From Telmatocola sphagniphila (GTDB lineage Bacteria; Planctomycetota; Planctomycetia; Gemmatales; Gemmataceae): a stretch of DNA of 32,000 bases. The notes under the pieces were generated by a model. It did not search any database. It was not told the DNA's origin and saw nothing but the letters and a program-made list of their open reading frames with translations. The first letter of the stretch is position 1. Each line of letters opens with the position of its first letter. Below are positions 13,601 to 31,735 of this stretch, in pieces. Location: NCBI RefSeq assembly GCF_018398935.1, contig NZ_CP074694.1:5280001-5312000 (forward strand), in the 5' to 3' direction. The position numbers and the translations under genes are program-made.

Positions 13601-15372
13601 ACAAGCTGAGTTATTTCAAGGAGCAAAAAAACGGCGAAAAAGTAGAATATCAGTTGAAATCTGATGGAAGTTTTCAAATTCTCCTCGACACGGTAAATTT
13701 AGACGAGAGAACAAAATCCTCGCAAATTTTAGATCACAAAACAATTACTGTAAATCGCCCGCACAGTTCGGACCTTCCTGAAGGGCAAAAAATTGAAACT
13801 TACAAGAGTCAATACGATGTTGATTACCATTATACAAAAGAAGGAAAACCTGATATTGGCCGGTTTACGAAAGAGACGACTTTAGATTGGACTGAATCTT
13901 CATCTACAGTAATGTCAAATATTTATTACGCTTCCTACATTGCTACATTAAATTCCCAAAGGGAATCAAATAGTCGAGGAAAAAATTATAGCTTCTACTC
14001 AGGTTGGGGTGACGAAGAAAACCCCACGATACTCAGTATTAAAGAAAAGTCGTTCTCAGTAATATATGCCAAAGGTCAAAGCACTAATTTGACCTTTGGC
14101 TCTAATATTACATTCTACAAATTCAACCAGTTCAGTTCAGTAAATATCGATCGAGAGGGTGTTCCTGCCCATGGTACAGGATCGCAAGTAGAAACCTCTG
14201 CAGAGTTAATAACTCAAACTATTTACGGGACGACAACGACTACTAGTAATAAGCCTCTGTGCACCACAACCACCGACTTATCTTGGCCACAAACAACTTG
14301 GTTCGAGCGGAACACGAATGCAATAGTAAATACAGCTAAAATCGCATTCGGACTGATTGAAGTTATCGGTGGTGCCTTGACCACCTTCGGCACCTGTGGC
14401 GGCGGAGTAGTTCCTGGCGTTTTCATGATGGCGAATGGACTGGATTCCATCATGACGGGCGTAGCCGGACTCTTGGACGGTCAATCGTATGGATCAGCTA
14501 TAGGCTACGCCGCTTCGCAGGGACTTCAAAAAATCGGCGTTCCAGAGAACGTTGCGGATGTGGCTGGAGAACTACTTCCGATCGCCATGAGTATGGGCTC
14601 CTCCGCACTCGCGCGGGCTTGCTTCGCAGCGGATACCAAATTATGGACGCCAACTGGCTATCGCCCAATTCAATCGATCAAAGCCGGAGAGTACGTCTAT
14701 TCCCGGAATGATGCCGATCCAAATGGTCCGATCGAACCGAAACTCGTCGAGGAGACTTTCAGCCGACTTGCGGTGATCTTCCACCTCCATGTGGAAAATC
14801 AGGTAATTCGCACTACAGGAGAACACCCCTTCTACGCCGAAGGCAAGGGGTGGGTCGATGCCCAGGAACTCCTCATTGGGGATAGAGTTCTCGGCTCGAA
14901 AGGAGAATGGCTGACAATTCGAGACTTGCTTGACACGGGCGAGTTCGAAACCGTATATAATATGCGAATTGCGGATCATCACACCTACTTCGTGGGTGAT
15001 GAATCCTGGGGCTGGGAGGTTTGGAGTCATAATAAGTGTCAACTACACCATTTCGTAATGGTAGCTTTAGGTAGTAAAGTTGAACGTGGTTCGTCCATTC
15101 TTACTTTGATCGGGTCTAGAACACACATAGCGATTCATCGAGCTCTGTCTAAACATCTGGAAACATACTCCAAGTATAGCCCTAAATTTGGAAAAACATT
15201 TACGATGAATCCTAAAAAGGGACAATCAGGGGACTTTATTCGATCAGTATTTTCACCATCAGAAAGAATTCAGGCATTGAAAGACTTTTATTCTACATAT
15301 AGAGGTGGGAGATACCTAAAGGAATTTATGATAGAGTTAGATACTACTCTTAAACGAGGCCTGTTCATATGA
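10657..15372 (+). CDS. large polymorphic toxin: N-terminal LEDR-like motif, G/S linker, N/S/T/Y-rich body, pre-toxin TG-like segment, Hint domain, LHH-type nuclease C-terminus
   Basis: Single 1571-aa ORF with no N-terminal hydrophobic signal peptide. It carries 'LKLEDRNQP' near the N-terminus, a Gly/Ser-rich tract (about aa 75-150), a Hint domain 'CFAADTKLW...TTGEHPF...VYNMRIADHHTYFVGD...WSHN' and a tail 'KCQLHHFV...THIAIHRAL'. The Hint-plus-variable-tail pattern repeats 4 times downstream. Confidence 0.9.
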   Translation: MPGKKSVTRKLTKWLSSSNSKKPLKAELIGTSFLKLEDRNQPGSVLNSFEMLPSFAFPSIFGDATANLSSFGGESNDLPGGGPSGSGGSGSEPLPGSGSNSESGAGSTGSDSGPGSSGSGSSTGGNGGSGSSGLPGYGGGSSGSNQQFTDAVYEQTVANALSQFGPLGDLFGENSQKMSPANLSTPQNISLEPPLPPAVNNNWSYSGQFQLSANDSSTGPTSSQLNSNLNPTPINVSQEISANNFKYSREIQFSGNRENESFLMSVIIDSTVSLGQVTTEAGTIVSTVWHKVGNQYLVNQQSALSSFNTIVPNDPNGNRSYVGFPAQGDITPNLDPRSYGLDQLQWDHIFRGDSVSYTYSGIYRGNYGDFSYYSNSSATSNWLDLTIDHPTGTNDQGLKSVVYTMYFGGSSSKDCIVSSQSSLLSQSASANRIPIRTGSAVTLPEQYTTNVSGTSFFERSYSWQNYGGHSYLTDSLDADNAIKNSTLDFRNQFSGGSGYQYYNSSICSIITNSIDITKVSRTDYSWLTNYASRNNYAGYVDYKLNYDSQNRPSGQVVQKMDSVDILDRDIYNCSVDYFSYDPLPNSGHYEYYSDNMKPIVYTNGNYQTTTYAKPVETASELASYVLNYGRIPDSDGRLFDTNTWYSTADTSYQTRTFDRRQNKFNQPGRTGKPYFGSSFESNVTRDDFYVEAKGVDDLWLKDGVSTREGNYLSQSINTYYGQGTPEQLPNDIDGSSAMYDWQQGESRGEFREKYLNSNGTSKLTSQYASDLHHSSGNGWNWGYTYGPKVPNVTNYYQYSSISDEIHTLDLNFAADGKKSGDYHDVVSGSLDEKYNETKIGNEPTYYEKVEANKVLSLNYPDANTTLNDSSLNEQYQFSLDDDEGHYTADKKNGNYQSKYKSNSRWDQRIERSSSVYANTLTNKYQGTINGSSTSDVDETGIVLNGIRTGAGELNATLKGTERYNQNKIERKVTPGENYSGDDKLSYFKEQKNGEKVEYQLKSDGSFQILLDTVNLDERTKSSQILDHKTITVNRPHSSDLPEGQKIETYKSQYDVDYHYTKEGKPDIGRFTKETTLDWTESSSTVMSNIYYASYIATLNSQRESNSRGKNYSFYSGWGDEENPTILSIKEKSFSVIYAKGQSTNLTFGSNITFYKFNQFSSVNIDREGVPAHGTGSQVETSAELITQTIYGTTTTTSNKPLCTTTTDLSWPQTTWFERNTNAIVNTAKIAFGLIEVIGGALTTFGTCGGGVVPGVFMMANGLDSIMTGVAGLLDGQSYGSAIGYAASQGLQKIGVPENVADVAGELLPIAMSMGSSALARACFAADTKLWTPTGYRPIQSIKAGEYVYSRNDADPNGPIEPKLVEETFSRLAVIFHLHVENQVIRTTGEHPFYAEGKGWVDAQELLIGDRVLGSKGEWLTIRDLLDTGEFETVYNMRIADHHTYFVGDESWGWEVWSHNKCQLHHFVMVALGSKVERGSSILTLIGSRTHIAIHRALSKHLETYSKYSPKFGKTFTMNPKKGQSGDFIRSVFSPSERIQALKDFYSTYRGGRYLKEFMIELDTTLKRGLFI
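10880..11100 (+). repeat. low-complexity Gly/Ser-rich coding tract inside the toxin gene
   Basis: Translates to 'GGGPSGSGGSGSEPLPGSGSNSESGAGSTGSDSGPGSSGSGSSTGGNGGSGSSGLPGYGGGSSGS'. Confidence 0.8.
14317..14619 (+). other. glycine-rich hydrophobic pre-toxin segment (PT-TG-like)
   Basis: 'AKIAFGLIEVIGGALTTFGTCGGGVVPGVFMMANGLDSIMTGVAGLLDG...' has glycine-zipper-like helices and TG dipeptides, immediately N-terminal to the Hint Cys1. This resembles the pre-toxin TG domain described for polymorphic toxins (from memory). Confidence 0.45.
14620..15033 (+). other. Hint (intein-like / PT-HINT) autoprocessing domain of the main toxin; master copy of the repeated handle
   Basis: Starts with Cys (tgc 14620). 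It has the block B 'TTGEHPF' (T-x-x-H), 'VYNMRIADHHTYFV' and a terminal 'SHN' (aat 15031-15033). It is about 138 aa with no endonuclease insert. Confidence 0.85.
15034..15372 (+). other. C-terminal toxin domain of the main gene, LHH-type HNH/EndoVII-fold nuclease (predicted)
   Basis: 'KCQLHHFVMVALGS..RTHIAIHRALSKHLE'. An LHH motif plus downstream His residues. Homologous to the orphan tail at 26263-26583 ('SCDLHHYLPMFMGS..DHTKFHRDINAFLE'). Confidence 0.5.
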
Positions 15373-15950
15373 AATATTATACATTTTACACAATAAAGGA
15401 TGCTAGTGTAAATACATCCATGTTCTATGAAATCGACAGCGGGACAGGTGTGTATTCTCCCTCTTCTGCCATTAGGCATCTCACTTGCAAAGAATGTAAT
15501 AAGTATGAAGAACGGAAAGCTTTCGATTTGTTAGCTACACGATCTTTTCAAATAACTCCAAAACATGACCATTTCGTGACTTTCGATGGTTGGAGAGTGG
15601 TTTCAAATAAATTCAAGGAAATTGTGGATAGGGTGGCCCCTAAATTAGTTTCTTGGTATCCCATTGGTGAAAAAAAACTCAATTTGTTTTTCGGATCAAT
15701 TCAATACCTTGCCAAATGTAAAGACGAGACATTACTCACTCGGTCAAATCTATGTAGCCTATGTGGTCGCTACGAAAATATATTAGAAGGTGATGCTCCT
15801 ATGGATTTCACCGATCATCCCGAGATTATCGGGCTACCATTTGAGAATAGATTTTGCTCTTCTCCAAGATGGTTAGTTTCTGAACGAATAAAAGAGTATC
15901 TTGAAGCTACGAATATTTCAAATATCGAATTTCATCAATATATGATGTAA
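15369..15950 (+). CDS. putative cognate immunity protein (family A; CXXC...CXXCG, Imm11/double-CXXCG-like)
   Basis: Its ATG overlaps the toxin stop (ATGA). It has 'CKEC' and 'CSLCG' motifs and a C-terminal 'RWLVSERIKEYLEATNISNIEF'. Paralogs lie at 25549-26151 and 26580-27187. Confidence 0.75.
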   Translation: MKYYTFYTIKDASVNTSMFYEIDSGTGVYSPSSAIRHLTCKECNKYEERKAFDLLATRSFQITPKHDHFVTFDGWRVVSNKFKEIVDRVAPKLVSWYPIGEKKLNLFFGSIQYLAKCKDETLLTRSNLCSLCGRYENILEGDAPMDFTDHPEIIGLPFENRFCSSPRWLVSERIKEYLEATNISNIEFHQYMM

Positions 15951-16096
15951 ACAATTTATGATAGATATCATGGAATATGATTAAAACTGGGTTGTTACGA
16001 AGTTGAATTTCGCACCTTGAGATAAAATCGCCATTCGATTTTGAGCAATATTGACGAGGTAACCGCAATACACTGGTTAGGTTTCCCAAAGAATTA

Positions 16097-16164: not shown

Positions 16165-16180
16165 TTAGTCAGGATTTCAC

Positions 16181-16594
16181 ATGGATTTGGATTTTTTGAA
16201 ATTTCACGGTTCTGCGATGAAGATCGCAGAAGCTGAATTATCAGCTTCTTTTTTTGAGGATGAAAAGCAAGTCCTTGGAAAAAAAATGTATGAAGAATAT
16301 GTAGCATCCGGTGCTCCAAAAGATTTGAAAAAATGGCTACGAATCAAATTAAAAAGCGTATTCCAGTATGTGGATTCACCTCCAAAGTGGGTCGAAAATG
16401 GTTTAGACCCACTTTGGCCTTTCTTAGATGGCTTTCCTATGATCTTCATTAAACAATTTGAGCTACCAGACAACGAATTTTGTGCTCAGAGTCTATCTGC
16501 TGGTACGATTTTGTACGTTTTTGGTGCTCGTCGAAAAACATCACATGGTTTCGAGATGATTTACCGAGTAGTGGAGCAAGATACAGGTTTTTAA
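16181..16594 (+). CDS. hypothetical protein, candidate orphan immunity protein (family B)
   Basis: 137-aa ORF and paralog of 30533-30946. The C-terminal half is almost identical at nucleotide level and the N-terminal half is diverged. Confidence 0.65.
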   Translation: MDLDFLKFHGSAMKIAEAELSASFFEDEKQVLGKKMYEEYVASGAPKDLKKWLRIKLKSVFQYVDSPPKWVENGLDPLWPFLDGFPMIFIKQFELPDNEFCAQSLSAGTILYVFGARRKTSHGFEMIYRVVEQDTGF

Positions 16595-16709
16595 AGATGA
16601 ATTGGTTTTACGTATAAGACATACATTTCTCCTTAGTCTGCGGTATTTACGTCTGTTTTCATGTACTCAGCATACTATAGTATAGCTCGATCATTGGATG
16701 AATTCGAAA

Positions 16710-17313
16710 ATGCCATTTCACGTCCTAGTCGAGCGAATTGAAAACGATGCTGGACCGAATTTTTCCCGGTTGAGCCAAAATATGGTCCAGGTCCGAAGTG
16801 CCCGAAATGCGGACAATTTGTCGGCTCACTACCTTTGGTACCCCCTACCGCTTCAAGTTGGATGTTTGGGGTAATCAATACGGCGATCTCGCGTTCGGAG
16901 GTCCCAGCCTTCTGATTTCTGAACACTTTAAAGAAGTCTATCAACAAAACGGATTGACCGGCCTGAACGGCTTCGAGCCCGCTCTAATGTTGAAATGCCA
17001 AAGTCGATTGAGGCTCAAAGAAACACCTCCAAATTATCTCCATGTAGAGCTCCATCGAGGGTTCGCTGCGATTGATGAAGCGGGTTCAGAAGTTATTTGG
17101 GAAGATCCTATTGTCTGTCGATATTGTCTACTAGGATCCAAACTGAAACGTCGTCGACGCATCATTATTGATGAATCGACTTGGAGCGGTGAGGATATTT
17201 TTTATGCCCGTGGCCTCCCAGGTATAATCCTCGTTTCCAGCCGTTTCAAAGAAGTGTGCGAACAGCATCAGATCAAAAATGCGATTTTCGTTCCCTCGGA
17301 ACACCGGCGGTAG
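16710..17313 (+). pseudogene. double-CXXCG-type immunity protein gene (family C) broken by two -1 frameshifts
   Basis: Frame 0 gives 'MPFHVLVERIENDAGPNF'. Frame 2 gives 'FPVEPKYGPGPKCPKCGQFVGSLPLVPP'. Frame 1 (track ORF 16798-17313) gives 'YRFKLDVWGNQYGDLAFGGPSLLISEHF...VCRYC...GEDIFYARGLPGIILVSSRFKEVCEQHQIKNAIFVP'. The frame switches fall at a T5 run (16760-64) and a C5 run (16841-45). Confidence 0.7.
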
Positions 17314-17339
17314 CATAGCATTTTGGTTCCTCCGTTCTA

Positions 17340-17762
17340 GCACGAGCCTGCTTCGCAGCGGACACCAAATTATGGACGCCAACCGGCTATCGTCCGATTC
17401 AATCGATCAAGGCCGGGGAGTACGTCTATTCCCGGAATGATGCCGATCCTAATGGTCCCATCGAGCCGAAACTCGTCGAGGAGACTTTTAGCCGGCTCGC
17501 GGTGATCTTCCATCTCCAAGTAGAAAATCAAGTAATTCGCACTACGGGAGAACACCCCTTCTTCGCAGAAGGCAAGGGGTGGGTCGATGCCCAAGAACTC
17601 CTCATTGGAGATAGAGTTCTCGGCTCGAACGGTGAATGGCTGACTATTCGAGACTTGCTTGACACGGGCGAGTTCGAAACCGTATACAATATGCGAATTG
17701 CGGATCATCATACCTACTTCGTGGGCGATGATCGCTGGGGCTGGGAGGTCTGGAGCCATAAT
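17340..17762 (+). repeat. Hint handle copy 2 (full length)
   Basis: Nucleotide-level alignment by eye with 14611-15033. The differences are mostly synonymous. Confidence 0.9.
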
Positions 17763-18047
17763 AAGTGTATTGGTGAATACGCAGATCTTCGAAAAATCTG
17801 GGCTGGGGCCGGCAAACAGATTCATCATTTGTTAGAGCAACGCTTTGCAAAACTGCTCGGCATGGATCCTATGAAAATGTAATGTATCGCAATGCCAAAA
17901 GCAAAACATCAAGTATTCACCAACGCATGGAGAAGGCTTATTCCCTACGGCGAGGGGACCAAATCTGCGACTGTAGCGGAAGTTGAAAATGCTGCTCGAC
18001 AAGTGTACAAAAATTATCCTGGAATATTAAGAGCTCTTGGACTTTAA
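17340..18047 (+). pseudogene. orphan toxin cassette O1: complete Hint domain + xHH (AHH-like) HNH/EndoVII nuclease tail, no start codon, internal TAA
   Basis: The frame is open from 17319 with no ATG. 'ARACFAADTKLWTPTGYRPIQ...WSHN' matches the main gene from 9 nt before Cys1. The tail is 'KCIGEY..QIHHLLEQRFAKLLGMDPMKM*CIAMPKAKHQVFTNAWRRLIPYG...', with an in-frame TAA at 17880-82 and a final stop at 18045-47. Confidence 0.75.
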
Positions 18048-18061
18048 ATAAAATTGAAAAT

Positions 18062-18889
18062 ATGAAGATAATCCACAGAATCTCTCTTAGCGCAACTAAA
18101 TCTCAGAGAACAGCGTTGGATGAATTGGGTGTTAAATATCAGGATGTTATTTCCGATTCAATAGTATTTGAAACTGACGAATCGTCAGCAAATTGGAGTT
18201 CAATCAGCTCTCTGCTCGCACTATGGAAATCAGGGAATTCAAATGTTATAGATATGGTAAGTACAAAATTTACTGAGATGGAATTGCTGAAGGCGGAAAA
18301 TTTAGTAATCGTCCCTGGCTGGCATCATGGTTATCCTGAACCGGACATTGCCATGGCCTATCTGAAGAAGACATACGATGAAATTGAGTATTGTTCAATT
18401 TGTGGAATAGGACTAAAGCAGCGAGAGCAATTTATTTTGCAGAAAGAACCAAAGTGGGGGTCAAAACAAATTCTCCAATTGAATTGGATATTCGATGAGT
18501 ATTTTGTAACTCCAGAAGTATGGGAGTTAGTGTTTAAACCTTTTAGAATCTCTTCAATCCCAGTTAGCAAGTTAAAAACAGGTAATCCTCTGGCAACTGT
18601 CGTGCAACTTAAAGTTTCCGATGTTTGTGAGCCTCTAACACCGTTTAACAGATTGAATTCCGTTCGATGCGACAAATGTGGTCGTTCGAAATATGCGAGT
18701 CACACAAAGGGACCGTTTCCACATGTTGTAATGCCCAAAAATTCGCATATTGCTAAAACTGCGGAATACTTTGGTAATGGTGCAAATGCATATAAAGAAA
18801 TAATTGTGTCTAGATCGTTATATCACGCAATTGTTTTAAATCGTTTGAAAGGAGCTGATTTTAAACCTGTAGAATCCTCTTTAAGATGA
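18062..18889 (+). CDS. double-CXXCG motif protein, putative immunity protein for O1
   Basis: 275 aa with 'CSICG' and 'CDKCG' motifs and a C-terminal 'EIIVSRSLYHAIVLNRLKGADFKPV'. It starts 14 nt after the O1 stop. Confidence 0.7.
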   Translation: MKIIHRISLSATKSQRTALDELGVKYQDVISDSIVFETDESSANWSSISSLLALWKSGNSNVIDMVSTKFTEMELLKAENLVIVPGWHHGYPEPDIAMAYLKKTYDEIEYCSICGIGLKQREQFILQKEPKWGSKQILQLNWIFDEYFVTPEVWELVFKPFRISSIPVSKLKTGNPLATVVQLKVSDVCEPLTPFNRLNSVRCDKCGRSKYASHTKGPFPHVVMPKNSHIAKTAEYFGNGANAYKEIIVSRSLYHAIVLNRLKGADFKPVESSLR

Positions 18890-19386
18890 AAGTTGGGCTA
18901 GACATACTATTTAGAGCCTCTAATAAAACGCCCGAAATAGTGTGGCATTAAAGCGTCATGAGTTCCATCTGGATTCAGGACTGAAACCATGTACCATGCA
19001 GATCTACAGGATAAAATTTGGCAAGAAATCGAACCGTTGCTTCTTCCGAATGAACCTCCCCGTGATCAAAGAGGACGTTCTCAAATCCCGAATACGATGG
19101 TCATGTGCGGTATCTTTTTCGTTCTGATTTCCGGTTTGCTTTGGGAGGATATACCCCGTTAAATGGGATGCTCGTGCATGATTTGTTGACGCATGCTTCG
19201 AGATTGGCAGAAACTTTCCATTTGGGATCAACTGCATCGTTTGATATTAGTCAGCTTGTGTAAAGCAGAGGAATGCGACCTCTCCCTAATCGTGGTCGAT
19301 AGCACTACTTCTCGATACGCTGGTGGAGGTGATCTGACCGGGTTAAATCCCAAAGATCGACGTAAACCAGTCAATAAGCTATACTA

Positions 19387-20554
19387 GTGTAGTGTCTCAG
19401 AAATAGCGTTACTTTTAGCTCCTTTTTGCGGTTTACTCTATAGAAAAGGAGAAAACCCATGAAAGTCGCGCTGCCAATCTTACTTTCTGACGAGGAACGA
19501 CAAACTTTGACTTCTTGGTCTCGGGGACGAAGTACTCCCGCTCGGCTGGTCCTGCGGGCGAAGATCATACTCGCGGCGGCCGCGGGTGTACGGAACAAGG
19601 ACATTGCTCAGCAGTGCGGCACGTCGAAGCCCACGGTGGCGCGCTGGCGGACCCGATTTGCGAAGCTGCGTTTGGCGGGTATCGAACGGGACGCTTCGCG
19701 GCCGGGTCGAACGCCAGCGATCAGCCGGAAAGTCGTCGAAGAAATTCTCCGCAAGACCACTCAGGAGAAACCTTCTGGTGCCACGCATTGGAGCACGCGA
19801 ACGATGGCCCAAGAGGTGGGAGTGAGCAAAGCCACCGTGCAGCGGGTTTGGTCGGCCCACAACTTGAAGCCGCACTTGCATAAGACCTTCAAGGTATCGA
19901 ATGATCCTCAATTCGCCGAGAAACTGTGGGACGTAGTGGGCTTGTACTTGAACCCTCCCGAGCACGCCCTGGTGCTGAGTTGCGATGAGAAGAGTCAGAT
20001 TCAAGCCCTTGATCGTACGCAAAAAAGCTTGCCGATGGTACCCGGCCGTTGCGGCACTCTGACTCACGATTACATGCGTCATGGCACCACCACTCTGTTC
20101 GCGGCCCTGAACGTGGCCGAGGGAATTGTGATTGGCGAGTGCATGCCGCGACATCGACATCAGGAATGGATCAAGTTTCTCAAACGGATCGATGCCGCCA
20201 CCGATCCGTCCTTGGATTTGCACTTGATCGTGGACAACTACGCCACGCATAAGCATTCCAAAGTTCGTCGTTGGTTGGCCCGGCATTCTCGATTCCACAT
20301 GCATTTCACCCCCACGAGCAGTTCCTGGATGAATCTGGTGGAGCGTTGGTTTCGCGACTTGACGGACAAACGACTGCGTCGAGGCACATTTCGAAGCGTG
20401 CCGCAATTAATCCAGGCGATTGAGGACTACATCGATCATCACAACAACACAGGAAAGGGATTCCAGTGGACCGCCAAAGCCGAAGTTATTCTGGAGAAAG
20501 TCCGCCGGGCGAGGGCTACCTTGGATAAAACACATTCTGTGTGAGACACTACAC
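19387..20554 (+). mobile_element. IS630-family insertion sequence (intact), TA target duplication
   Basis: Terminal inverted repeats 'gtgtagtgtctca' (19387-99) and 'tgagacactacac' (20542-54), flanked by TA on both sides (19385-86 and 20555-56). One full transposase ORF. Confidence 0.9.
19459..20544 (+). CDS. IS630 family transposase
   Basis: 361 aa with N-terminal HTH/winged-helix regions ('[46 protein letters not shown]') and a DDE_3-type core ('[12 protein letters not shown]', '[12 protein letters not shown]', '[11 protein letters not shown]'). Confidence 0.95.
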
Positions 20555-20779
20555 TAGGGTGTGGATCGCAACGGTATTCCTCTCGAGGCTCATGTTAGGA
20601 GAACCAATCTACAGGATGTGAAAAAAATCATTCCTCTGGTGATCGACTTGCCGGCTCTTGAAGGAAAAGTCGGTGTATCCCATTAACAAACCCCAAGTGG
20701 TACTGGCAGATCAAACCTATCACGACAAATCAGGAGACGCCTTGCTTCGATATTTGGGAATCACGCCGCGTATGGCTAA

Positions 20780-20846
20780 GAAGGCCTAACAAAACCCGAG
20801 TTTGCCCATTGAAATCCGTCAAAAACCTAGGTTTTGTTAGGGCCTC
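20780..20846. mobile_element. 67-bp MITE copy B inserted in the IS1031-like transposase gene (TAA duplication)
   Basis: 'gaaggcctaacaaaaccc...ctaggttttgttagggcctc' flanked by TAA (20777-79 and 20847-49). Removing the element plus one TAA (70 bp) fuses '..GITPRMAKK' in frame to 'NTPNGSEMGKTRYVVERT..'. Confidence 0.75.
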
Positions 20847-21085
20847 TAAGAAGAATACTCCTAATGGCAGTGAAATGGGAAAAACTCGATACGTCGTGGA
20901 GAGGACCATCGCTTGGATACGCGGCATACACGGACTCCGAGTGCGATTTGATCGACACGACTGCATTTCTCAGACTTGGAATTCCTTTACCTTGGATTTT
21001 ATTTGCTTGTGAATTCTGATCGAATAATACGATTTTGATAAAGAGGTTTTTTGGGACTCTTTATTTTCTCTATTCTTCCATATAG

Positions 21086-23153: not shown

Positions 23154-23216
23154 ATCATATCTATATTTACGATTTACCTCGAACGGAATAACAATGAAAT
23201 ATTACGAGATGAATAT

Positions 23217-24639
23217 GGCTCTTCCGTTTTTAGGCGCAACTCTCGGCGAATCGGTCATTTTGGGATAGATTGCAATTGAGAGTACCCTTTTCCTGGTTCA
23301 CGGAAGAGCCGATGACGACGACTACCATTGCCATAGACATGGACGTCCCTGCCGGAGTGAGCGTTGGCGAATACGAACGCATCGACGGGGGCCACGCCTT
23401 TCACGTGAGTTGGGAGTTGCCCGACAATCTTTGTTGCGAGACATGCCAGCGAGAGTCTCGGCTTCAATTGGTGGAGAAGAACAAGTTTCTGAGCATCCGC
23501 GATCTGGATTTGTGGGGTAAGCCGAGCTTTTTCGTGTACCAGGAGGTGTATCACCGCTGCCCGTCGTGCGGTCACCGTCAATCGCTGTTGCCGCCGTTCA
23601 AGCGTCGGGATGTGAAATATACGTTTCGCTTCGAGGAGCAGGTGCTGGTCAGTCTGATCGGGAGCACAGCCGAAGACGTGGCGGTGCGTTTGGGGATCGC
23701 CGCGGAGACGGTGGAACGAATCGTCAAGAACCGGATAGAGGACGCCAAGGCGAAGCAGATCGATCCCCAGCGGAAGATCGAGCGTTTGGGTCTGGATGAG
23801 ATCAGCCTGCGTAAGGGGCATAAGGGATATGCGACCATTCTCACAGACCTGACGAATGGGGAGCGTCCGGAGATTCTGGCTCTGTCCAAGGGTCGCGACG
23901 AAGCAGCGGGGCGAGCGTGTTTGGAGCATTTGTCGGCCCAGCAACGGTCGGCGGTGCGTTGGCATCATACGGACATGAGCCGCGGCGTATTTGAAGGCTT
24001 GCGGCGTGCATTTACCCAACAGCCAGTCGGTAATAGATCGCTTTCACGTCGCCAAGAAATTGGGTGAGGTGGCGGACGATCTGCGAAAAAACTATCGAGC
24101 CTACAAGCGAAGTTTGAGCGGGGAAGCCCGCAAGAAGCTGCGTTCTCAGATGCACGACTTCCGGCGTCGTCCCGAGGATTTGAAACCGGAGCAGGTCCAG
24201 GCCCTCGAGGATTTGTTCGAGAAGGTGCCTTCGTTGGGAACGATCTACCATCTGCGTTGGGAGGCGACCAAAATCTTCGATAGTGCCCCGAACCGAGCCG
24301 AAGCCTCGCGACTGTTGGAAGATTGGATCGTCCAGGCCCGCGAGACCGAGATGGATTGGGAGCCGTTCATCACGATGCTCAAGAATAACTGGGAGGGGAT
24401 CTTAGCCTACTTCGAGGAACGCAAAAGCAGCGGCCCGGTGGAGGGTCTGAATACCAAGATTCGGGTAGTGCTACGCCGAAGTTATGGAATTCAGAGTCTA
24501 ACTACGCTCTGGACGAGAATACTCCTGGACGTGAATTGGGCAGCGAAAAAATTAGGGCCGACCATTGCGGAGATTCGCGGCTTCGTCAACCAGATACAGA
24601 AGCATTTCTCTGGATGCTACACCTAGAAACGGAAGAGCC
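23217..24639 (+). mobile_element. ISL3-family insertion sequence with 8-bp target duplication
   Basis: Inverted repeats 'ggctcttccgttttTagg' (23217-) and 'cctaGaaacggaagagcc' (-24639). There is a perfect 8-bp direct repeat ATGAATAT at 23209-16 and 24640-47. Confidence 0.9.
23312..24626 (+). pseudogene. ISL3 family transposase, split by a +1 frameshift near 23985-23995
   Basis: The N-terminal part has zinc-finger Cys pairs ('CCETC', 'CPSCG') and '..LGLDEISLRKGHKGYATILTDL..HTDMSRG'. The second frame continues 'YLKACGVHLPNSQSVIDRFHVAKKL...GPVEGLNTKIRVVLRRSYG'. The two track ORFs (23270-24067 and 23991-24626) overlap. Confidence 0.85.
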
Positions 24640-25176
24640 ATGAATATAGATTCTGAATCCGTCACAGCTATGCCATCGATTCAAGATTGCTTTTCTGATG
24701 GAAGTGCTGTGGATATTTGGGCTTTTATACGCTGTGAAAAATATACTGGAAAAACGCCGATACCTTTTAAATCTGAAGATTCAAGGATCATCGATGATTT
24801 TAACTATACGGCATTTGGCGCCATAATTGTATCTGAGCGTATGGCTGTCTGCTTGCGAGATATATCGCCGAACGATTTTGAATTAATTCCATGTCTCATC
24901 AACAATAATTACACTTCGCTTATTGTTAACGTTCTAGCGAATCCTGATTGCATCGATACTGCTGCAAGTATAATTCAATATTATCCTCCCGACGATCCGG
25001 AAAAACCCAACAAACCGAGAGGCGTTATAAAATTGGTGATTGATTCAGCCCAGGCAAGTCCGCATCACATTTTACGTCCAAAATATTGGCAAGTCGAAAT
25101 TGTGATTTCTCAAATTTTTAAAGATGCTTTTGAGCAGGGGAAATTCACTGGCATGCGGTTTAGCCCGGCCTATTGA
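24640..25176 (+). CDS. Imm11/DUF1629-like putative immunity protein for O3, 5' end displaced by the ISL3 insertion
   Basis: The original start 'ATGAAATATTACGAG ATGAATAT' is at 23194-23216. After the IS the reading frame resumes at the duplicated ATGAATAT (24640): 'MNIDSESVTAMPSIQ...'. The C-terminus is 'YWQVEIVISQIFKDAFEQGKFTGMRFSPAY'. The track ORF 24565-25176 starts inside the IS. Confidence 0.7.
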   Translation: MNIDSESVTAMPSIQDCFSDGSAVDIWAFIRCEKYTGKTPIPFKSEDSRIIDDFNYTAFGAIIVSERMAVCLRDISPNDFELIPCLINNNYTSLIVNVLANPDCIDTAASIIQYYPPDDPEKPNKPRGVIKLVIDSAQASPHHILRPKYWQVEIVISQIFKDAFEQGKFTGMRFSPAY

Positions 25177-25548: not shown

Positions 25549-26151
25549 GTGAACTTTTTCGCTATATTTACTAAAAAGGATGTTACACCATCGACTTCGC
25601 TGTTTTATAAATTAGATAAAATAACAGACAAATATTCGCCTATTTTAGAAATTAATCATTTGACATGCTCATTATGTATTAAATACGATGAAAATAAGGC
25701 TATCGAGTTGCTAAGTGCTAGAAAGTTGAGCGTATTGCCAAAAATGGATCATTTTGTTACTTTCGATGGATGGAGACTATTTTCGGAGAAATTTAGAAAT
25801 ATTGTAGAGTCTGTGGCACCGCGACTCGTAACTTGGTATCCTATAAGCACAAAAAGATCTGCTATATATTATGGGTCAATCCACTTTCTCGCAAAATGTT
25901 CTGAAGGGAATACATTGGAGTGTTCTAATAAATGCGATCTGTGTGGTCGATACGAGAGTGTTCTTGAGGGAAATGTACCGTTGAAATTAGAAAATATCCC
26001 AGATATTGTTGGTTTGCCATTTGAAGACAGATTTTGCTCTTCTCCCAGATGGTTAGTTTCCGATCGAATAAAAGCGAAGCTTGAGGCAGCAGGTATTACA
26101 AATATAGATTTCCATCGCTATTATAGAGACTCGAGGGTATATAGTATGTAA
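25549..26151 (+). CDS. family A immunity protein paralog (CXXC...CXXCG), cognate toxin lost
   Basis: Aligns along its length with 15369-15950 ('HLTCSLC..', 'HFVTFDGWRLFSEKFRNIVESVAPRLVTWYPI', 'CDLCGRYE', 'FCSSPRWLVSDRIKAKLEAAGITNIDFH'). The GTG at 25549 aligns with the paralog start. The track ORF extends to the ATG at 25477. Confidence 0.75.
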   Translation: MNFFAIFTKKDVTPSTSLFYKLDKITDKYSPILEINHLTCSLCIKYDENKAIELLSARKLSVLPKMDHFVTFDGWRLFSEKFRNIVESVAPRLVTWYPISTKRSAIYYGSIHFLAKCSEGNTLECSNKCDLCGRYESVLEGNVPLKLENIPDIVGLPFEDRFCSSPRWLVSDRIKAKLEAAGITNIDFHRYYRDSRVYSM

Positions 26152-26200: not shown

Positions 26201-26262
26201 CGGATCATCACACCTACTTCGTGGGTGATGAATCCTGGGGCTGGGAGGTTTGGAGTCATAAC
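26201..26262 (+). repeat. Hint handle copy 5 (~60 nt)
   Basis: Perfect match by eye to 14971-15030 of the main toxin gene. Confidence 0.85.
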
Positions 26263-26583
26263 AGTTGTGACTTACATCATTATCTACCGATGTTTATGGG
26301 AAGTATGGTACGGCGCGGCACTTTGTTCGCTCGCTCAATCCTAAAACCATTCATAAAGACAGATCATACCAAATTTCATAGGGACATAAATGCATTCTTA
26401 GAAACACTAGATATGACAGTTAAAAGAGGCAGAACGTCACAAGACATTATCACTACGTTTGCGAAAAGGAGCGACTCAAAGCATTTGTTGTGGTTATATA
26501 TATATTATGAACAGGAAATTGATGCTAAGGTATTTCTTAATAAACTTTGTGCGACTATTAGAGCGGGATACTTTCCTAGATGA
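26221..26583 (+). CDS. orphan toxin cassette O4: last ~20 aa of Hint + LHH-type nuclease tail (predicted)
   Basis: 26201-26259 is identical by eye to the main gene ('DHHTYFVGDESWGWEVWSHN'). The tail then reads 'SCDLHHYLPMFMGSMVRRG...DHTKFHRDINAFLE'. There is no ATG; the track ORF uses the GTG at 26221. Confidence 0.7.
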   Translation: MGDESWGWEVWSHNSCDLHHYLPMFMGSMVRRGTLFARSILKPFIKTDHTKFHRDINAFLETLDMTVKRGRTSQDIITTFAKRSDSKHLLWLYIYYEQEIDAKVFLNKLCATIRAGYFPR

Positions 26584-27187
26584 TCACAAATATGTTTCTT
26601 GTTACTCCTCGAGATACAGTTAATTCGTTCTTTCTGTTTAGATTTATTAATAATAAATCTGGGGCGATGCTACAAATTCGTGAGGAATATACCGATTTAG
26701 TTTGCCATAAATGCGGTAAATTGAATGAAATTTCAGCTTTAGATAGAAATATTGTTTTCATGTCAAAAATTAAGAGCAAAAAATCATTCGTTTTATCTGC
26801 AGATGATTTTTATCTGACTAATCAAAACGGAGTTTTGTCTTTGAATAAATCTTTTGGGAATCTTCTTGTTTTTCGGGAACAGATTACTTTGCAGTGACAC
26901 CGAAATGCATAGTCCAGCCGAAATTGCACGATGAAGGATTTAAATTTGTGTATGGAACTCAGGGAAACTGCACAGAATGCAGACGGCCGAAAGAAGTGGT
27001 ATGGTCCAAAACTCCGCCAACTATTTCAAAAATGCCGGTCTTATTCGCAGTAAACTTAGAGAGCCAGCTGGGCGCAAGAGTTGTATGGATAGTACAAAAT
27101 GAGGTTCAGGATGAACTTAGATCATTGAAGTCAATACACCCTGGTATAGTTTACAGACCAATTAAATTTGATTGTAACTTAGTTTAG
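26580..27187 (+). pseudogene. family A-like immunity gene for O4, split into two ORFs by a frame change at ~26894
   Basis: Its ATG overlaps the O4 stop (ATGA). ORF1 (26580-26897) carries 'CHKCG'. ORF2 (26894-27187, GTG overlapping the TGA) carries 'CTEC' and ends 'ARVVWIVQNEVQDELRSLKSIHPGIVYRPI'. Together they mirror the single-ORF paralogs. Confidence 0.6.
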
Positions 27188-27225
27188 GTAATGCTTCCTG
27201 GACTGCATCACAACTAGCTGTGCTA

Positions 27226-27530
27226 GTGTAGTGTCTCACACAGAATGTGTTTTATCAAGGGTGGCTCTAGCCCGGCGAACTTTCTCCAGAATAGTCTCGG
27301 CTTCCTCGGCAATGTCCTTGTTCAATACACCTGCGGCCGCCGCGAGTATGATCTTCGCCCGAAGGACCAGCCGAGCGGGAGTACATCGTCCCCGAGACCA
27401 AGAAGTCAACGTTTGTCGTTCCTCGTCAGAAAGTAAGATTAGCAGCGCGACTTTCATGGGTTTACTCCTTAATCTATAGAGTAAACCGCAAAAAAGAGCA
27501 AAAGGAAACGCTATTTCTGATACAGTACAC
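27226..27530 (-). mobile_element. 305-bp internal-deletion derivative of the IS630 element (MITE-like), TA-flanked
   Basis: Ends 'gtgtagtgtctca' (27226-) and 'tgatacagtacac' (-27530), with TA on both sides. It encodes a 73-aa in-frame fusion of the transposase N-terminus (52 aa, HTH) to its last ~20 aa (ORF 27236-27457, minus strand). Confidence 0.85.
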
Positions 27531-27686
27531 TAGGGACCCTTTAACTGGATATATTCCTGCGTCTGGGGCGCCCATGGTCCTTTTCTTGCGCGACCTTTTG
27601 GCGACTTTACTTGACAAGATATTAAAGATTTTGCCAACTTAATCGACAGATTGTTTGGCAAGTAGTTTCTTCCTCCCAGGTAAAAT

Positions 27687-28133
27687 ATGAGTATTTATAG
27701 TATTCTCGAACCTGAAGTAGCCGGAGTGATCGGTGAGTCTAGCTTCATCGATGGTAGTACGATTCCGCAGGTCGTACGCAGTCTAGAATATAAATTTGAG
27801 ACCTGGTTCGAGAATGATCTATTGCAAGCATACCCTTGCTTCCTTGTAACCGACAGGCTGAAAAAGGCACTCGAAAAATATCATGGAACGGGGTACAGTT
27901 TTGACGAAGTCTTTGCAACTCAATCCGTTCAATTTGAACTGATCAATCCCGGTATAACATTGGGGTTATTCTGGTGCTTTAAAATCTCCGGCCATGCAGG
28001 GGAAGCGGATTTTGGCTTGTCAGAAGATGGTACTTTAGTTGTGTCAGCCAATGCTCTTGAGATTCTTCGGAAATTTAATCTTAGCCGTTGCACAATTAGA
28101 ACGAGGCCGTTTCAACCAAAAAAAGCAATCTGA
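27687..28133 (+). CDS. hypothetical protein, candidate orphan immunity protein
   Basis: 148-aa ORF containing 'CFLVTDRLKKALEKYHGTGYSFDEV', the same LV(S/T)..hK..hE....G..F motif as the other immunity candidates. No adjacent toxin. Confidence 0.5.
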   Translation: MSIYSILEPEVAGVIGESSFIDGSTIPQVVRSLEYKFETWFENDLLQAYPCFLVTDRLKKALEKYHGTGYSFDEVFATQSVQFELINPGITLGLFWCFKISGHAGEADFGLSEDGTLVVSANALEILRKFNLSRCTIRTRPFQPKKAI

Positions 28134-28235: not shown

Positions 28236-29030
28236 ATGGTTGTTAACTCATCGACTGATACGAGCGAAATCGAACCTTCCTTCGTTCAGAATTTTCGTAG
28301 TGATACTCTGACGGAAGCTCAGGCTCAAGCGTTTGCCGAACAGGATCCTTTGTTTATTAAATTTCAACTTTCGAAATTGCCCTCGATCAATCTTTCCAAG
28401 CGTTCGCTGCATGCTTCCTCAAGCACCTTGGCTCCCTTCGAGAAGCCTTCTCCCAAGAAGCGTCCTCGCTCGCCCGGTGCCAAAGCGGGTCACGAGGGGC
28501 ATTCGCGGGAGAAGCCCGAGCGGATCGATCACCGTTTGCCCTGCTGCCCCGATTGCGGCAGAGAACAGACTCGCACCGACCGTCAGCGTACGCGAGTTAT
28601 CGAAGATATTCCGGCGAACTTAAAGGCGGAAGCGGTCGATCACACCCTTCATCGGGACTGGTGTTCTTCCTGCAAAAAGCAGGTGGAACCCAAAGTTCCC
28701 GACGCTCTGCCGGCCTGCACGCTGGGCAACCAGCCGGCCACGCTCTCGGCTTTCTTGCACTACAGCGTGGGCACGACCACTCGCCAAGAGGTCGATGTCT
28801 TCAATGGCCATCTGCAATTGAAGATCACCGAAGGCGGTTTGACCCAGAAGTGGCATCGGTTGGCCGAGACTCTGAAGCCCTGGTACGAGCAGATCTGGGA
28901 CGAGTGCCAGCAAGCGGCGGTGCTCAATGCCGATGAGACCGGTTGGCATCCGAATGGAGCCTTGATCTGGTTGTGGTGATTCTGTACGGCCCGCTCGAGG
29001 TTCTATGCCATCGACCCCTGCCAAAGCCGA
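28236..29030 (+). pseudogene. IS66-family transposase N-terminal fragment (truncated, in-frame TGA)
   Basis: zf-IS66-like 'CCPDCG...C..C', then 'LNADETGWHPNGALIWLW*FCTARSRFYAIDP'. The DDE core is absent and the sequence runs into an IS630 end fragment. Confidence 0.7.
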
Positions 29031-29100
29031 GGCTATTCTGGAGAAAGTTCGTCGGGCTAAGGCTACCTTGGATAAAAGATCTTCTGTGTGTGACCTGCAC
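29018..29100 (+). mobile_element. IS630 right-end fragment
   Basis: 'ccaaagccgaggctattctggagaaagttcgtcgggctaaggctaccttggataaaag..ctgtgtgtgacctgcac' parallels 20473-20554 of the intact copy, followed by TA. Confidence 0.7.
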
Positions 29101-29502: not shown

Positions 29503-29964
29503 ATGGACGATAGCTTAAATCTAAGAATTCGAAATCTCGAACACGTAAAAAACGAATGCATAATAACGAATGCGCAAATCGACGAAGTGGAGGATGAACT
29601 CTCTTTTGCTTTTCCATCAGATTATCGGTCGTTCATTCTGACTTTCGGCGTACTATTTCTGGACGGACACATTATTCGAGGAATCTATGAGGAGGACGAG
29701 CAGGAACTAGAATCATTTGGCGTAAGCATTCTTGAAACGAAGCGCGAACGCAAAAAAATCGGCAAGTTTACCGGCTATCCGGCCGATTTCATAGTCTTGG
29801 AAGCTAATTCTGGTGGCGGATACGTGCTTCTGATTTTCAGGGAAGGCAAATATACTCTTGAGAATTGGGAGAAGGACGGCGATTGGTATCTTCTGAAAGA
29901 ATGGAATAGTTTCACTGACTATTTAAACGAGATCGTCGAAAATGCTGAGAAAAGCGTTCTGTGA
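29503..29964 (+). CDS. SMI1/KNR4 (SUKH-1) family protein, orphan immunity candidate
   Basis: 153 aa. 'ITNAQIDEVEDELSFAFPSDYRSFILTFG' is the typical SMI1/KNR4 N-terminal signature (xxIxxxExxLGxxLPxDYxxFL). Confidence 0.7.
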   Translation: MDDSLNLRIRNLEHVKNECIITNAQIDEVEDELSFAFPSDYRSFILTFGVLFLDGHIIRGIYEEDEQELESFGVSILETKRERKKIGKFTGYPADFIVLEANSGGGYVLLIFREGKYTLENWEKDGDWYLLKEWNSFTDYLNEIVENAEKSVL

Positions 29965-30458
29965 AACCATCGCCTACTAAATCCAGATATTTTTCACGGC
30001 CAAAACTCGGCGATGTGTTTGAAGTTGCTCTTTCCAAAGGGGACTTCGGATATATTCAGTATGTTTACAATTATCGTAAGCCGCCCGTATGTGGTCCGTT
30101 GATTCGCATCCTGCCTGGACTCTACGCTTCCAGACCTGAGAATATAAGTGATTTGGTTGCGCAATCGGAACGTTTCTGGACTTTCTATCCGCTAGCTACC
30201 CTTTTGCATCAGGGATTAGTTACGAAAGTTTCAAACGAAGCAATTCCTGAACGATGTCAGACGTTCCCCTTGTTCAAGGCATGTAATCGGAACTTTCAAA
30301 CGGGACAGAAGACTTGGTTTCTCTGGGATGGAGATAAAGAATGGAAAGAAGACCCACTTTCACCAGAGTATTATGATCTATCGCTTTGCCAGATTATAGG
30401 TCATGAACTACTCGTCGAACGTATTGAAACCACCTGGTCGCCTCGCGATGAAGTATAA
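29961..30458 (+). CDS. hypothetical protein, Imm26-like immunity candidate
   Basis: 165 aa. Its GTG overlaps the upstream stop (GTGA). The N-terminal 'KLGDVFEVALSKGDFGYIQYVY' resembles the GDxFxxPLxDGxxGYGxV start of Imm26-type proteins (from memory). Confidence 0.5.
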   Translation: MKPSPTKSRYFSRPKLGDVFEVALSKGDFGYIQYVYNYRKPPVCGPLIRILPGLYASRPENISDLVAQSERFWTFYPLATLLHQGLVTKVSNEAIPERCQTFPLFKACNRNFQTGQKTWFLWDGDKEWKEDPLSPEYYDLSLCQIIGHELLVERIETTWSPRDEV

Positions 30459-30532
30459 ATTTCGCGTTTTGGGCGATCGTTGAACTGTTTGAGTACTCCA
30501 AATCTAAATGGCTCGGAATTACTGGATGCGGT

Positions 30533-30946
30533 ATGGACATGCAATATTTGAAATTTCATGGCATTGCTATGAAAGAAGCAGAAAATGAATTTTCTGCTTC
30601 TTTCTTTGAAGACGAAAAAGATGCGCTAGCGAAAAAACTGTTCGAAGAATATTTGAGTGAAGGCGCTCCGAAAGACACTAATAAATGGCTGCGATCCAAA
30701 CTCAAAAGCGTTTTTCAGTATGTGGATTCACCTCCAAAGTGGGTCGAAAATGGTTTAGACCCGATTTGGCCTTTCCTAGATGGCTTTCCTATGATCTTCA
30801 TCAAACAATTTGAGCTACCAGACAACGAATTTTGTGCTCAGAGTCTATCTGCTGGTACGATTTTGTACGTTTTTGGTGCTCGTCGAAAAACATCACATGG
30901 TTTCGAGATGATTTACCGAGTAGTGGAGCAAGATATAGCTTTTTAA
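30533..30946 (+). CDS. hypothetical protein, family B paralog (candidate immunity)
   Basis: 137 aa. The C-terminal ~75 aa are identical or nearly so to 16181-16594. Confidence 0.65.
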   Translation: MDMQYLKFHGIAMKEAENEFSASFFEDEKDALAKKLFEEYLSEGAPKDTNKWLRSKLKSVFQYVDSPPKWVENGLDPIWPFLDGFPMIFIKQFELPDNEFCAQSLSAGTILYVFGARRKTSHGFEMIYRVVEQDIAF

Positions 30947-30962
30947 AGATGAATTTGTCTTA

Positions 30963-31029
30963 GAGCCTCTAACAAAACCTCAGTTTGTTCATGGAATACT
31001 GCTACAAAAAGGGGTTTTGTTAGAGCCTC
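30963..31029. mobile_element. 67-bp MITE copy C (filled site; empty site at 16608-16610)
   Basis: 'gagcctctaacaaaacc...ggggttttgttagagcctc' flanked by TTA (30960-62 and 31030-32). The paralogous sequence at 16595-16620 reads '..gaattggttTTAcgtataagac' with no insert. Confidence 0.8.
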
Positions 31030-31131
31030 TTACGTATAAGACATACATTTCTCCTTAGTCTGCGGTATTTACGTCTGTTTTCATGTACTCAGCATACTAT
31101 AGTATAGCTCGATCATTGGATGAATTCGAAA

Positions 31132-31735
31132 ATGCCATTTCACGTCCTAGTCGAGCGAATTGAAAACGATGCTGGACCGAATTTTTCCCGGTTGAGCCAA
31201 AATATGGTCCAGGTCCGAAGTGCCCGAAATGCGGACAATTTGTCGGCTCACTACCTTTGGTACCCCCTACCGCTTCAAGTTGGATGTTTGGGGTAATCAA
31301 TACGGCGATCTCGCGTTCGGAGGTCCCAGTCTTTTGATTTCTGAATTCTTCAAAGAAGTCTATCACCAAAACAGATTGACCGGCCTGAATGGATTCGAGC
31401 CCGCTCTAATGTTGAAATGCCAAAGTCGATTGAGGCTCAAAGAAACACCTCCAAATTATCTCCATGTAGAGCTCCATCGAGGGTTCACTTCAATCGACGA
31501 GGCGGGTTCAGAAGTTGTTTGGGAAGATCCCATTGTCTGTAGCTATTGTCTACTAGGGTACAAACTCAAGCGACGTCGACGCATCATTATTGATGAATCG
31601 ACTTGGAACGGTGAGGACATTTTTTATGCCCGTGGCCTCCCAGGTATAATCCTCGTTTCCAGCCGTTTCAAAGAAGTGTGCGAACAGCATCAGATCAAAA
31701 ATGCGATTTTCGTACCTTCCCAACACCGGCGTTAA
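31132..31735 (+). pseudogene. second copy of the family C double-CXXCG-type gene with the same two frameshifts
   Basis: Same three-frame structure as 16710-17313, with the T5 run at 31182-86 and the C5 run at 31263-67. 'CPKCG' lies in the middle frame. The track ORF is 31220-31735. Confidence 0.7.

Follow-up and report, generated by a model that had tools for sequence, protein, structure and literature searches.

A polymorphic-toxin locus of Telmatocola sphagniphila with putative immunity genes of the Imm11/double-CXXCG clan beside HH-motif toxin tails

Telmatocola sphagniphila is a planctomycete of peat bogs. The stretch of its genome analysed here, called the window throughout, comprises 32,000 nucleotides (nt) of contig NZ_CP074694.1 (assembly GCF_018398935.1, positions 5,280,001 to 5,312,000 of the forward strand), and the region from 10657 to 31735 within it is very probably a polymorphic-toxin locus. 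Judged by sequence comparison, its immunity genes A to G would belong to one superfamily, Pfam clan CL0767, with H as a probable further member, and they would be paired with toxin tails that carry an 'HH' motif. An initial annotation had picked out open reading frames (ORFs) starting at 15369 (A), 25549 (B), 26894 (the second half of C, here C2), 16798 (D), 31220 (E), 18062 (F), 24640 (G) and 27687 (H), and the eight motif peptides that it quoted all lie inside these ORFs. The left 9.4 kb of the window are encoded on the minus strand, have about 55% G+C and hold ordinary gene content, while from 10657 on everything lies on the plus strand and G+C falls to 37-53% in patches. Between 9400 and 32000, toxin tails and immunity genes have 37-45% G+C against about 55% in the flanking chromosome, and insertion sequence (IS) elements have 51-53%; the low values of tails and immunity genes are consistent with horizontally exchanged cassettes. 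The hypothetical proteins KIH39_21205, KIH39_21225, KIH39_21265 and KIH39_21280 are annotations identical to ORFs of the window. The array consists of one polymorphic toxin of 1571 amino acids (aa) with a PT-HINT domain, four orphan cassettes made of a HINT junction and a tail, the immunity genes and several IS elements. The toxin, tail and immunity features, in their order along the DNA, are these:

10657-15372, plus strand: full-length polymorphic toxin, 1571 aa, with Pfam PT-HINT (77.1 bits) at aa 1331-1459 (about nt 14647-15033).
About 15040-15372, plus strand: tail T1, the C-terminal 110 residues of the main toxin after WSHNKC, reading 'QLHHF...H..IH...'.
15369-15950, plus strand: A, intact, 193 aa, the predicted immunity gene for T1; CXXC at aa 40 and 129.
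16710-17313, plus strand: D, a gene broken over three frames, with an annotatable ORF at 16798-17313 (171 aa).
17325-18047, plus strand: orphan cassette 2, a 3' piece of HINT (in the repeat comparison 91-92% identical in nt to 14596-15033) and tail T2.
17502-17882 with read-through beyond, plus strand: tail T2, 'QIHHLLEQRF...HQVFTNAWR...ALGL', with an in-frame TAA at 17880-17882.
18062-18889, plus strand: F, intact, 275 aa, the predicted immunity gene for T2; core cysteines C111/C114 and C203/C206.
20990-21724, plus strand: orphan cassette 3, a HINT fragment and a Tox-URI2 tail (ORF 21086-21724; Tox-URI2 31.7 bits against a gathering score of 20).
22657-23153, plus strand: orphan cassette 4, a short HINT remnant found as a repeat and an AHH tail (ORF 22686-23153).
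23194-23216, plus strand: original first codons of G, ATG AAA TAT TAC GAG ATG AAT AT.
23217-24639, plus strand: ISL3-family element of 1423 bp with ISL3 domains and 20-nt terminal inverted repeats.
24640-25176, plus strand: G, a classical Imm11 with a remaining ORF of 178 aa and no CXXC.
25549-26151, plus strand: B (KIH39_21265), an intact paralogue of A, 200 aa, GTG start.
26201-26583, plus strand: orphan cassette 5, an 81-nt HINT junction (repeat of 91% identity) and tail T5 (ORF 26221-26583).
26221-26583, plus strand: tail T5, 'DLHHY...H..FH', a T1 homologue.
26580-27187, plus strand: C, an A-family gene predicted to serve T5, split by one frameshift into ORFs 26580-26897 (C1) and 26894-27187 (C2).
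27687-28133, plus strand: H, intact, 148 aa, no Cys pairs.
30533-31735, plus strand: E with the upstream ORF X1'; E has its ORF at 31220-31735 and the same out-of-frame CPKCG as D.

The pretoxin-HINT is the sole recognised domain of the main toxin. Its N-terminal 1320 residues (10657-14640), which open with a Gly/Ser-rich low-complexity stretch, contain no recognised trafficking, repeat or secretion domain. Pfam scores for PT-HINT are 77, 64, 67 and 20 bits in the main protein and in orphans 2 to 4. Comparison of repeats finds the HINT/tail junction in five copies, at 14972, 17701, 21366, 22732 and 26201, which reach up to 92% nt identity upstream of the junction and diverge downstream of it. 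HINT stands before a variable tail, copies of the junction are truncated at their 5' side and each tail is followed by a predicted immunity gene, as in PT-HINT toxins with orphan cassettes.

The kinship of the immunity genes emerges from profile searches. A full HMMER search with A and B recovered 43 representative homologues of about 190-205 aa in which four Cys are nearly invariant. A hidden Markov model (HMM) built from 44 sequences of the A/B family, hereafter the A-family profile, was searched against all stop-to-stop segments of the window (both strands, minimum length 40 aa, 409 in total). It retrieved A (E = 2.5e-54), B (1.4e-52), C1 (2.3e-20), C2 (2.7e-20), G (9.7e-5), F (3.2e-4), H (7.5e-4), D (0.029) and E (0.048), followed by noise at E = 2.1; the small ORFs at 16181, 21761, 29503, 29961 and 30533 had no match to it. 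This clean separation indicates that the list of ORFs in the initial annotation was complete and specific. Pairwise BLAST links only A with B (54% identity, blastp E = 1e-82) and D with E (94%), no other pair being significant. The Pfam model Imm11 (PF07791, DUF1629; gathering score 22.1 bits) is passed by G (60.0 bits, and 60.3 bits in a second scan, over profile positions 41-192 of 194), A (30.9) and D (24.2), and is matched below gathering by E (21.6), B (18.3) and H (12.5, E = 0.094). F, C1 and C2 have no Imm11 match, and a frameshift-corrected C is also without any Pfam match, although the A-family profile covers corrected C fully. By threshold, three of the eight genes would therefore count as Imm11 members, or five of the eight if close paralogy (E to D, B to A) is accepted.

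The second relative is the double-CXXCG family. TIGR02264, the 'SitI6 family double-CXXCG motif immunity protein' model, is matched by D (E = 1.6e-4) and E (9e-3); no ORF reaches its equivalog cut-off of 100 bits. On PF09535 (cut-off 25 bits) D scores 12.0 bits and frameshift-corrected D 15.1 bits, the latter scoring 22.3 bits on TIGR02264. D and E would accordingly be clan-level relatives rather than SitI6 equivalogs. Among the 44 A-family sequences, five match Imm11 and five match Gmx_para_CXXCG, which places the A family between the two. Imm11 and Gmx_para_CXXCG (double_CXXCG) form one Pfam clan, CL0767 (PMC12077181). The A family matches both of these clan families, the C halves match the A family at E = 2e-20 and F is connected by alignment of profiles with hhalign. 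The kinship with Imm11 and the double-CXXCG family suggested in the initial annotation thus held at the level of the superfamily. On these grounds A to H appear to form one superfamily within CL0767, H only probably.

The domain itself is best described as an internal duplication, in which each half would consist of a CXXC(G) knuckle, about 30-40 residues and then a strand-helix-strand unit. The motif consensus, hhVSxxhkxxhexxxhxGhxF, is the sequence of this unit, and a copy lies about 25-45 residues after CXXC where Cys are present. A loose form of its core occurs nine times in the candidates, whereas over 1000 residue shuffles it averaged 1.0 occurrences and never exceeded 5. The initial annotation had seen the motif as shared, which it is, and as a single C-terminal one; it occurs twice per protein, the two copies lying 64-106 residues apart. 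These lie at aa 75-99 (WRVVSNKFKEIVDRVAPKLVSWYPI) and 167-188 in A, 37-61 and 143-166 in D, 141-168 and 246-270 in F, 60-85 and 152-176 in G, and 51-75 and 115-139 in H. The peptides quoted were the second copies of A (15369-15950, aa 167-188), D (16798-17313, aa 143-166), F (18062-18889, aa 246-270) and G (24640-25176, aa 152-176), aa 143-166 of E (31220-31735), aa 167-188 of B (25549-26151), aa 64-89 of C2 (26894-27187) and, for H (27687-28133), the first copy at aa 51-75, all on the plus strand. When the N- and C-terminal halves of the A family are aligned by hhalign (probability 84%, E = 7.8e-6), CXXCG falls over CXXCG and VS over VS, and several of the Pfam, BLAST and profile matches are cross-matches between the two motif copies. 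An AlphaFold2 model of F (predicted local distance difference test, pLDDT, 93) has both copies as strand-helix-strand, at 147-149/151-161/165-170 and 247-250/251-259/265-270. That most members carry two CXXC motifs is true of A (CKECN and CSLCG), B (CSLCI and CDLCG) and F (CSICG and CDKCG) within one intact ORF. In C the two are split one per ORF across the frameshift (CHKCG and CTECR), in D and E one is in frame (CRYCL or CSYCL) and CPKCG is found only out of frame, and G and H have none. The four Cys of the two knuckles presumably hold one structural zinc jointly, and G and H would be derivatives that lost the Cys and hence are zinc-less. The few papers found that mention the Imm11 and double-CXXCG families gave no description of an internal duplication, and PDB sequence searches with G and the A-family profile returned no relevant match.

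That one fold may be re-used against several tails, as had been proposed, is supported by gene order (A after T1, C after T5, F after T2, G after AHH) and by pairings that recur elsewhere. The tails had been called LHH, xHH and AHH nucleases. This stands for AHH, which is recognised by Pfam (PF14412, 28.9 bits, E = 1.2e-6, gathering 22.3); the 'LHH' and 'xHH' tails are without a Pfam family, and 'xHH', which is T2, has a premature stop. T1 and T5 have no Pfam match even at E <= 10 and are thus not Pfam LHH (PF14411), although the literal tripeptide LHH is present. They are 27% identical to each other (pairwise blastp, E = 1e-8) and the corresponding immunity proteins A and C about 20%, so that the two pairs have diverged. 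The start of A overlaps the stop of the main toxin (ATGA), and the start of C overlaps that of T5 in the same way. In a metagenome contig with an A-family member, a peptide clearly homologous to the T1 C-terminus lies just upstream; a tblastn search of T1 against plasmids gave no match. The halves of C align to positions 3-90 and 102-193 of the A-family profile (E = 2.3e-20 and 2.7e-20), and the frameshift between them lies at about 26873-26885, near a T5 homopolymer run. B has no toxin directly upstream and is therefore an extra or orphan immunity gene. H is likewise an orphan in the window; its two known homologues stand directly after PT-HINT tails reading '..VHH.[VI]EQQVL...LH.SFIR.AWN'. 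Including these tails elsewhere, the scaffold faces at least four different HH-motif tail families, of which only AHH is in a curated family. Comparison by hhalign of the tails among each other and with AHH found no link (probabilities below 4%).

F and its tail may form a widespread pair. Neither F nor its T2-type partner belongs to a Pfam or NCBIfam family, Pfam scans of T2 and of its intact homologues were empty, and a PDB sequence search with the T2-family profile gave no relevant match. F has 39 full-length homologues, in which the Cys and the full length are conserved, and 70 genomic loci; its homologues come from genomes and metagenome-assembled genomes labelled Planctomycetota, Myxococcota, Acidobacteriota, Chloroflexi, actinobacteria, spirochaetes, Bacteroidetes, several proteobacterial groups and others. 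A T2-like tail is found 5' of the F homologue in 32 of 71 loci (the 70 genomic loci from many phyla and one of Methylomonas methanica MC09), and most of these tails end at most about 30 nt from the immunity start. Their consensus is 'AHHLIEKRF...EHQxFTNAWR...IPYG.GT...YP.IL.ALGL'. Read through its TAA, the T2 of the window aligns end to end with the intact tails 5' of F homologues, which have Ser or Leu at that position, and F begins 14 nt past the stop of the read-through frame. The TAA is thus read as a nonsense mutation, and T2 appears to be a nonsense-mutated orphan. In Methylomonas the partner of F is an orphan Rhs fragment, and this tail (locus L004, 6969-7778) also stops early, with a stop after TNA where the others read TNAW; in both loci the downstream immunity gene is intact beside the prematurely stopped tail. 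Compared by hhalign, the F and A-family profiles match over the whole length with a probability of 86% (E = 4.7e-6) and over the C-terminal half with 95% (E = 1.9e-8), the alignment running from the first motif copy via the second CXXCG to the C-terminal motif. F has in addition a conserved N-terminal β-α-β-α-β domain of about 85 residues (aa 1-85, 18062-18320) that the other paralogues lack; structural comparison of this α/β domain gave nothing beyond insignificant resemblance to PII/ACT-like ferredoxin folds.

G and the AHH tail appear 1.5 kb apart because the ISL3 element sits seven codons into G. The inverted repeats of the element lie at 23215-23234 and 24622-24641, it is flanked by an 8-bp target-site duplication, ATGAATAT (left copy at 23209-23216), and its transposase is split in two overlapping ORFs (23270-24067 and 23991-24626). 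Removing it in silico yields an ORF that begins MKYYEMNIDSES at 23194, 41 nt past the AHH stop. The target duplication supplies an in-frame ATG (24640), so that the ORF of G survives, cut off from the AHH gene; apart from five lost initial codons and the missing native sequence before them, it is intact. We therefore read G as the predicted immunity gene of the AHH tail.

D and E are, by their reading frames, probable pseudogenes. Two other frames hold the first knuckle, CPKCG, together with a plausible start codon (ATG 16710 in D). Correcting the frameshifts of D raised the profile scores barely and the alignment did not reach the upstream CPKCG; the reconstruction of D is thus based on spacing and reading frames only. 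Programmed frameshifting was considered for D and E and rejected, as two shifts within about 100 nt in a stop-rich context resemble decay. D is duplicated together with the small ORF X1 before it, the two copies lying 14.4 kb apart (16181-17313 and 30533-31735), with a 70-nt insertion between the two genes of the second copy. Identity is 73-93% over X1 and 100% over 300 nt (16608-16907 = 31030-31329), a stretch that includes the frameshifted start of D and E, and this difference suggests recent gene conversion.

Further small ORFs and mobile elements lie between these genes, and the left flank of the window holds unrelated functions:

Left 9.4 kb, minus strand: genes for an ABC-2 exporter, an HlyD-type protein, a TetR regulator and an HtpG-like ATPase, by domain matches.
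16181-16594, plus strand: X1, 137 aa, with no Pfam or NCBIfam match; its copy X1' at 30533-30946 has 85% aa identity.
19384-20557, plus strand: IS630-family element with DDE_3 and HTH domains (transposase ORF 19459-20544).
21761-22405, plus strand: X2, 214 aa, downstream of the Tox-URI2 tail, with no Pfam or NCBIfam match.
27223-27533, minus strand: inverted, internally deleted IS630 remnant with both ends joined, resembling a miniature inverted-repeat transposable element (85-95% identity to 19384-19607 and 20477-20557).
28236-28979: IS66 fragment, by domain and repeat matches.
29503-29964, plus strand: SUKH/SMI1_KNR4 immunity protein (SMI1_KNR4, 49.6 bits).
29961-30458, plus strand: 165-aa ORF overlapping the SUKH gene, with no family match.

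The ORFs at 16181-16594, 21761-22405, 29961-30458 and 30533-30946 occupy immunity positions and have neither a Pfam or NCBIfam match nor similarity to the Imm11 clan. X2 is presumed to be the immunity gene of the Tox-URI2 tail, from an unrelated and unnamed family. A further IS630 right-end fragment lies at 29020-29094. By eye, a 67-aa ORF at 20809-21012 (…RYVVERTIAWIRGIHGLRVRFDRHD…) looks like the C-terminal end of an IS4/IS5-type transposase and would be an IS fragment between IS630 and orphan cassette 3.

Several of these results weigh against reading the locus as a set of CL0767 immunity genes opposite HH-motif tails. T1, T5, T2 and the H-associated tails are without Pfam or PDB match and have no profile-level link to AHH, and the label of nuclease is given to T1, T5 and T2 only by their HH...H pattern. 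With C, D and E, three of the eight genes are frameshifted, and the working repertoire would thus be smaller than is apparent. D and E reach 21.2 and 15.4 bits on TIGR02264, whose exact equivalog cut-off is 100.15. H is borderline, with a probability of at most 6.5% in hhalign, an Imm11 match at E = 0.094 and an AlphaFold2 model, built from a 3-sequence alignment and not used, with a pLDDT of 46. It is conceivable, though we regard it as unlikely, that the array mostly represents decaying cassettes and not a working, selected repertoire, a graveyard in which paralogues persist only because orphan modules accumulate and erode beside the toxin gene. The frameshift of C (a separately assembled read-set contig has the identical two-ORF split), the three-frame state of D and E, the in-frame TAA of T2 with the early stop of the Methylomonas orphan, and the ISL3 element inside G together with IS630, IS66 and other fragments scattered over the array all fit such erosion. 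However, four genes (A, B, F and H) are undamaged, G still has a full ORF with an ATG, the full length of F is conserved over its homologues, and intact immunity genes beside decayed toxins are what selection for protection predicts. Decay complements rather than excludes the assignment of the genes to paired toxin and immunity modules.

A doubt of a different kind concerns membership. H, and possibly the first half of F, could be an unrelated family that shares a short amphipathic strand-helix motif by convergence, a view to which we give less credence than to common descent. The H profile aligns with the A and F families by hhalign with 6.5% and 1.8% probability, in the motif only, the H homologues (P0043 and P0044) have no Imm11 match, the motif copies are 64 aa apart compared to 92-106 aa in the others, and the first half of F matches the A family only at CXXCG. 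Yet the A-family profile detects both motif copies of H among the 409 segments (E = 7.5e-4), the weak Imm11 match falls at the expected profile position and the homologues lie directly behind HH-motif PT-HINT tails, where an immunity gene is expected. Clan membership of H is probable. Chance or compositional likeness of unrelated small ORFs, for which pairwise blastp between families might speak (not significant, E = 0.002 to >1), is extremely improbable and was rejected: A, D and G pass Pfam, the profile search separates the candidates from all other segments, hhalign reaches E values of 1e-6 to 1e-8 and the nine motif occurrences stand against 1.0 in shuffles. We find it hardly more credible that the proteins act as nucleic-acid-binding regulators of the zinc-ribbon type or as classical antitoxins, and not as immunity proteins of secreted toxins. 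Some homologues do stand alone without a toxin, and the F family has weak matches to the Nop10 and Nudix N-terminal models; these matches are sub-threshold and confined to the knuckle, the genes consistently follow PT-HINT or Rhs C-terminal tails, and the immunity function of Imm11 has been shown experimentally (PMC12077181). The gene position and the sub-threshold nature of these matches led us to reject that explanation.

Homology, gene order, the conservation of pairings and the gene defects are what we observe; on the assignment to a toxin locus with dedicated immunity genes, the array could work as follows. One full-length secreted toxin would carry the pretoxin-HINT and the C-terminal toxic tail. 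Each of the four promoter-less orphan cassettes downstream of it repeats the final 80-440 nt of HINT coding sequence before running on into a different tail, and homologous recombination in the shared HINT sequence could swap a new tail, along with its immunity gene, onto the expressed toxin. Tail swapping by recombination is established knowledge of Rhs, contact-dependent inhibition (CDI) and PT-HINT systems. The product of the small immunity gene after each tail would be cytoplasmic and would bind and block that tail in the producer cell, and immunity genes without a toxin would protect against the tails of relatives.

Much of this is known from related systems. Imm11 (DUF1629) was described as an α+β immunity family linked to Tox-AHH, Tox-HNH and Tox-SHH, was recorded in planctomycetes and was noted to make up polyimmunity loci of the homogeneous kind (Zhang et al. 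2012, PMC3482391). An example from Myxococcus xanthus is MXAN_0049, an Imm11 protein that binds to the AHH nuclease MXAN_0050 and neutralises it. In strain DK1622 there are 20 imm11 genes, additional ones accompany some of the toxin loci, and cross-protection has been observed at 46% identity (PMC12077181, PMC12077131). In light of these three papers the idea of one fold re-used against several HNH-type tails is supported but has already been published. Similar to the M. xanthus AHH/Imm11 system (PF14412/PF07791), the locus has a clear Imm11, G, beside a Pfam AHH tail, many paralogues in one region and extra imm11 genes without a toxin, and the identity of B to A exceeds the value at which cross-protection was reported (PMC12077181). 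It differs in that delivery would be by PT-HINT in a planctomycete, not by a type VI secretion system or outer-membrane exchange, in that most partners (T1, T5, T2) are not recognisable as AHH, and in that most members retain two CXXC knuckles, unlike classical Imm11 such as G. With SitA6/SitI6 (TIGR02264, PF09535) it shares the two CXXC(G) knuckles (within one intact ORF in A, B and F), the repeated strand-helix-strand motif and the clan that also holds Imm11; TIGR02264 is the best NCBIfam match of D and E, and PF09535 is matched by A-family members. Unlike SitI6, however, the scores are far under the cut-offs, and D and E carry frameshifts and a second knuckle of the form CxxCL instead of CXXCG. 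The SitA6 lipoprotein toxin (DUF2380) was not seen among the scanned toxin ORFs, and the ORFs 5' of D and E (X1 and X1') have no Pfam match. From the orphan arrays of rhs, cdiA and PT-HINT systems and from polyimmunity loci (PMC3482391) there is no essential difference: downstream of a full-length toxin lie modules that are truncated at the 5' side and retain a block of homology, and related and unrelated immunity genes (Imm11 clan, SUKH, ORFs without family) are mixed with interspersed IS elements. Pfam covers neither the particular tails nor three immunity branches.

The locus leaves the current understanding of such systems unchanged, and what is new is modest: the pairs of A family with T1-type and of F family with T2-type tails stand outside curated families, and F is widely distributed. 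As a tentative joint proposal, which we hold with somewhat less than even confidence, the F family and the T2-type tail may be a widespread, undescribed toxin-immunity pair, and a zinc knuckle with a β-α-β unit, duplicated in tandem, may be the origin of the whole Imm11/double-CXXCG superfamily, classical Imm11 being a form that lost its zinc. The F family with its tail and the A family with the T1-type tails could become database models. The T1/A and T5/C pairs and the extra paralogue B are natural material for studies of specificity. The superfamily has been studied nearly exclusively in Myxococcus, and the locus contributes an example from a planctomycete, with predicted delivery by PT-HINT, in which a single array would set one immunity scaffold beside at least three mutually unrecognisable HH-motif tail families.

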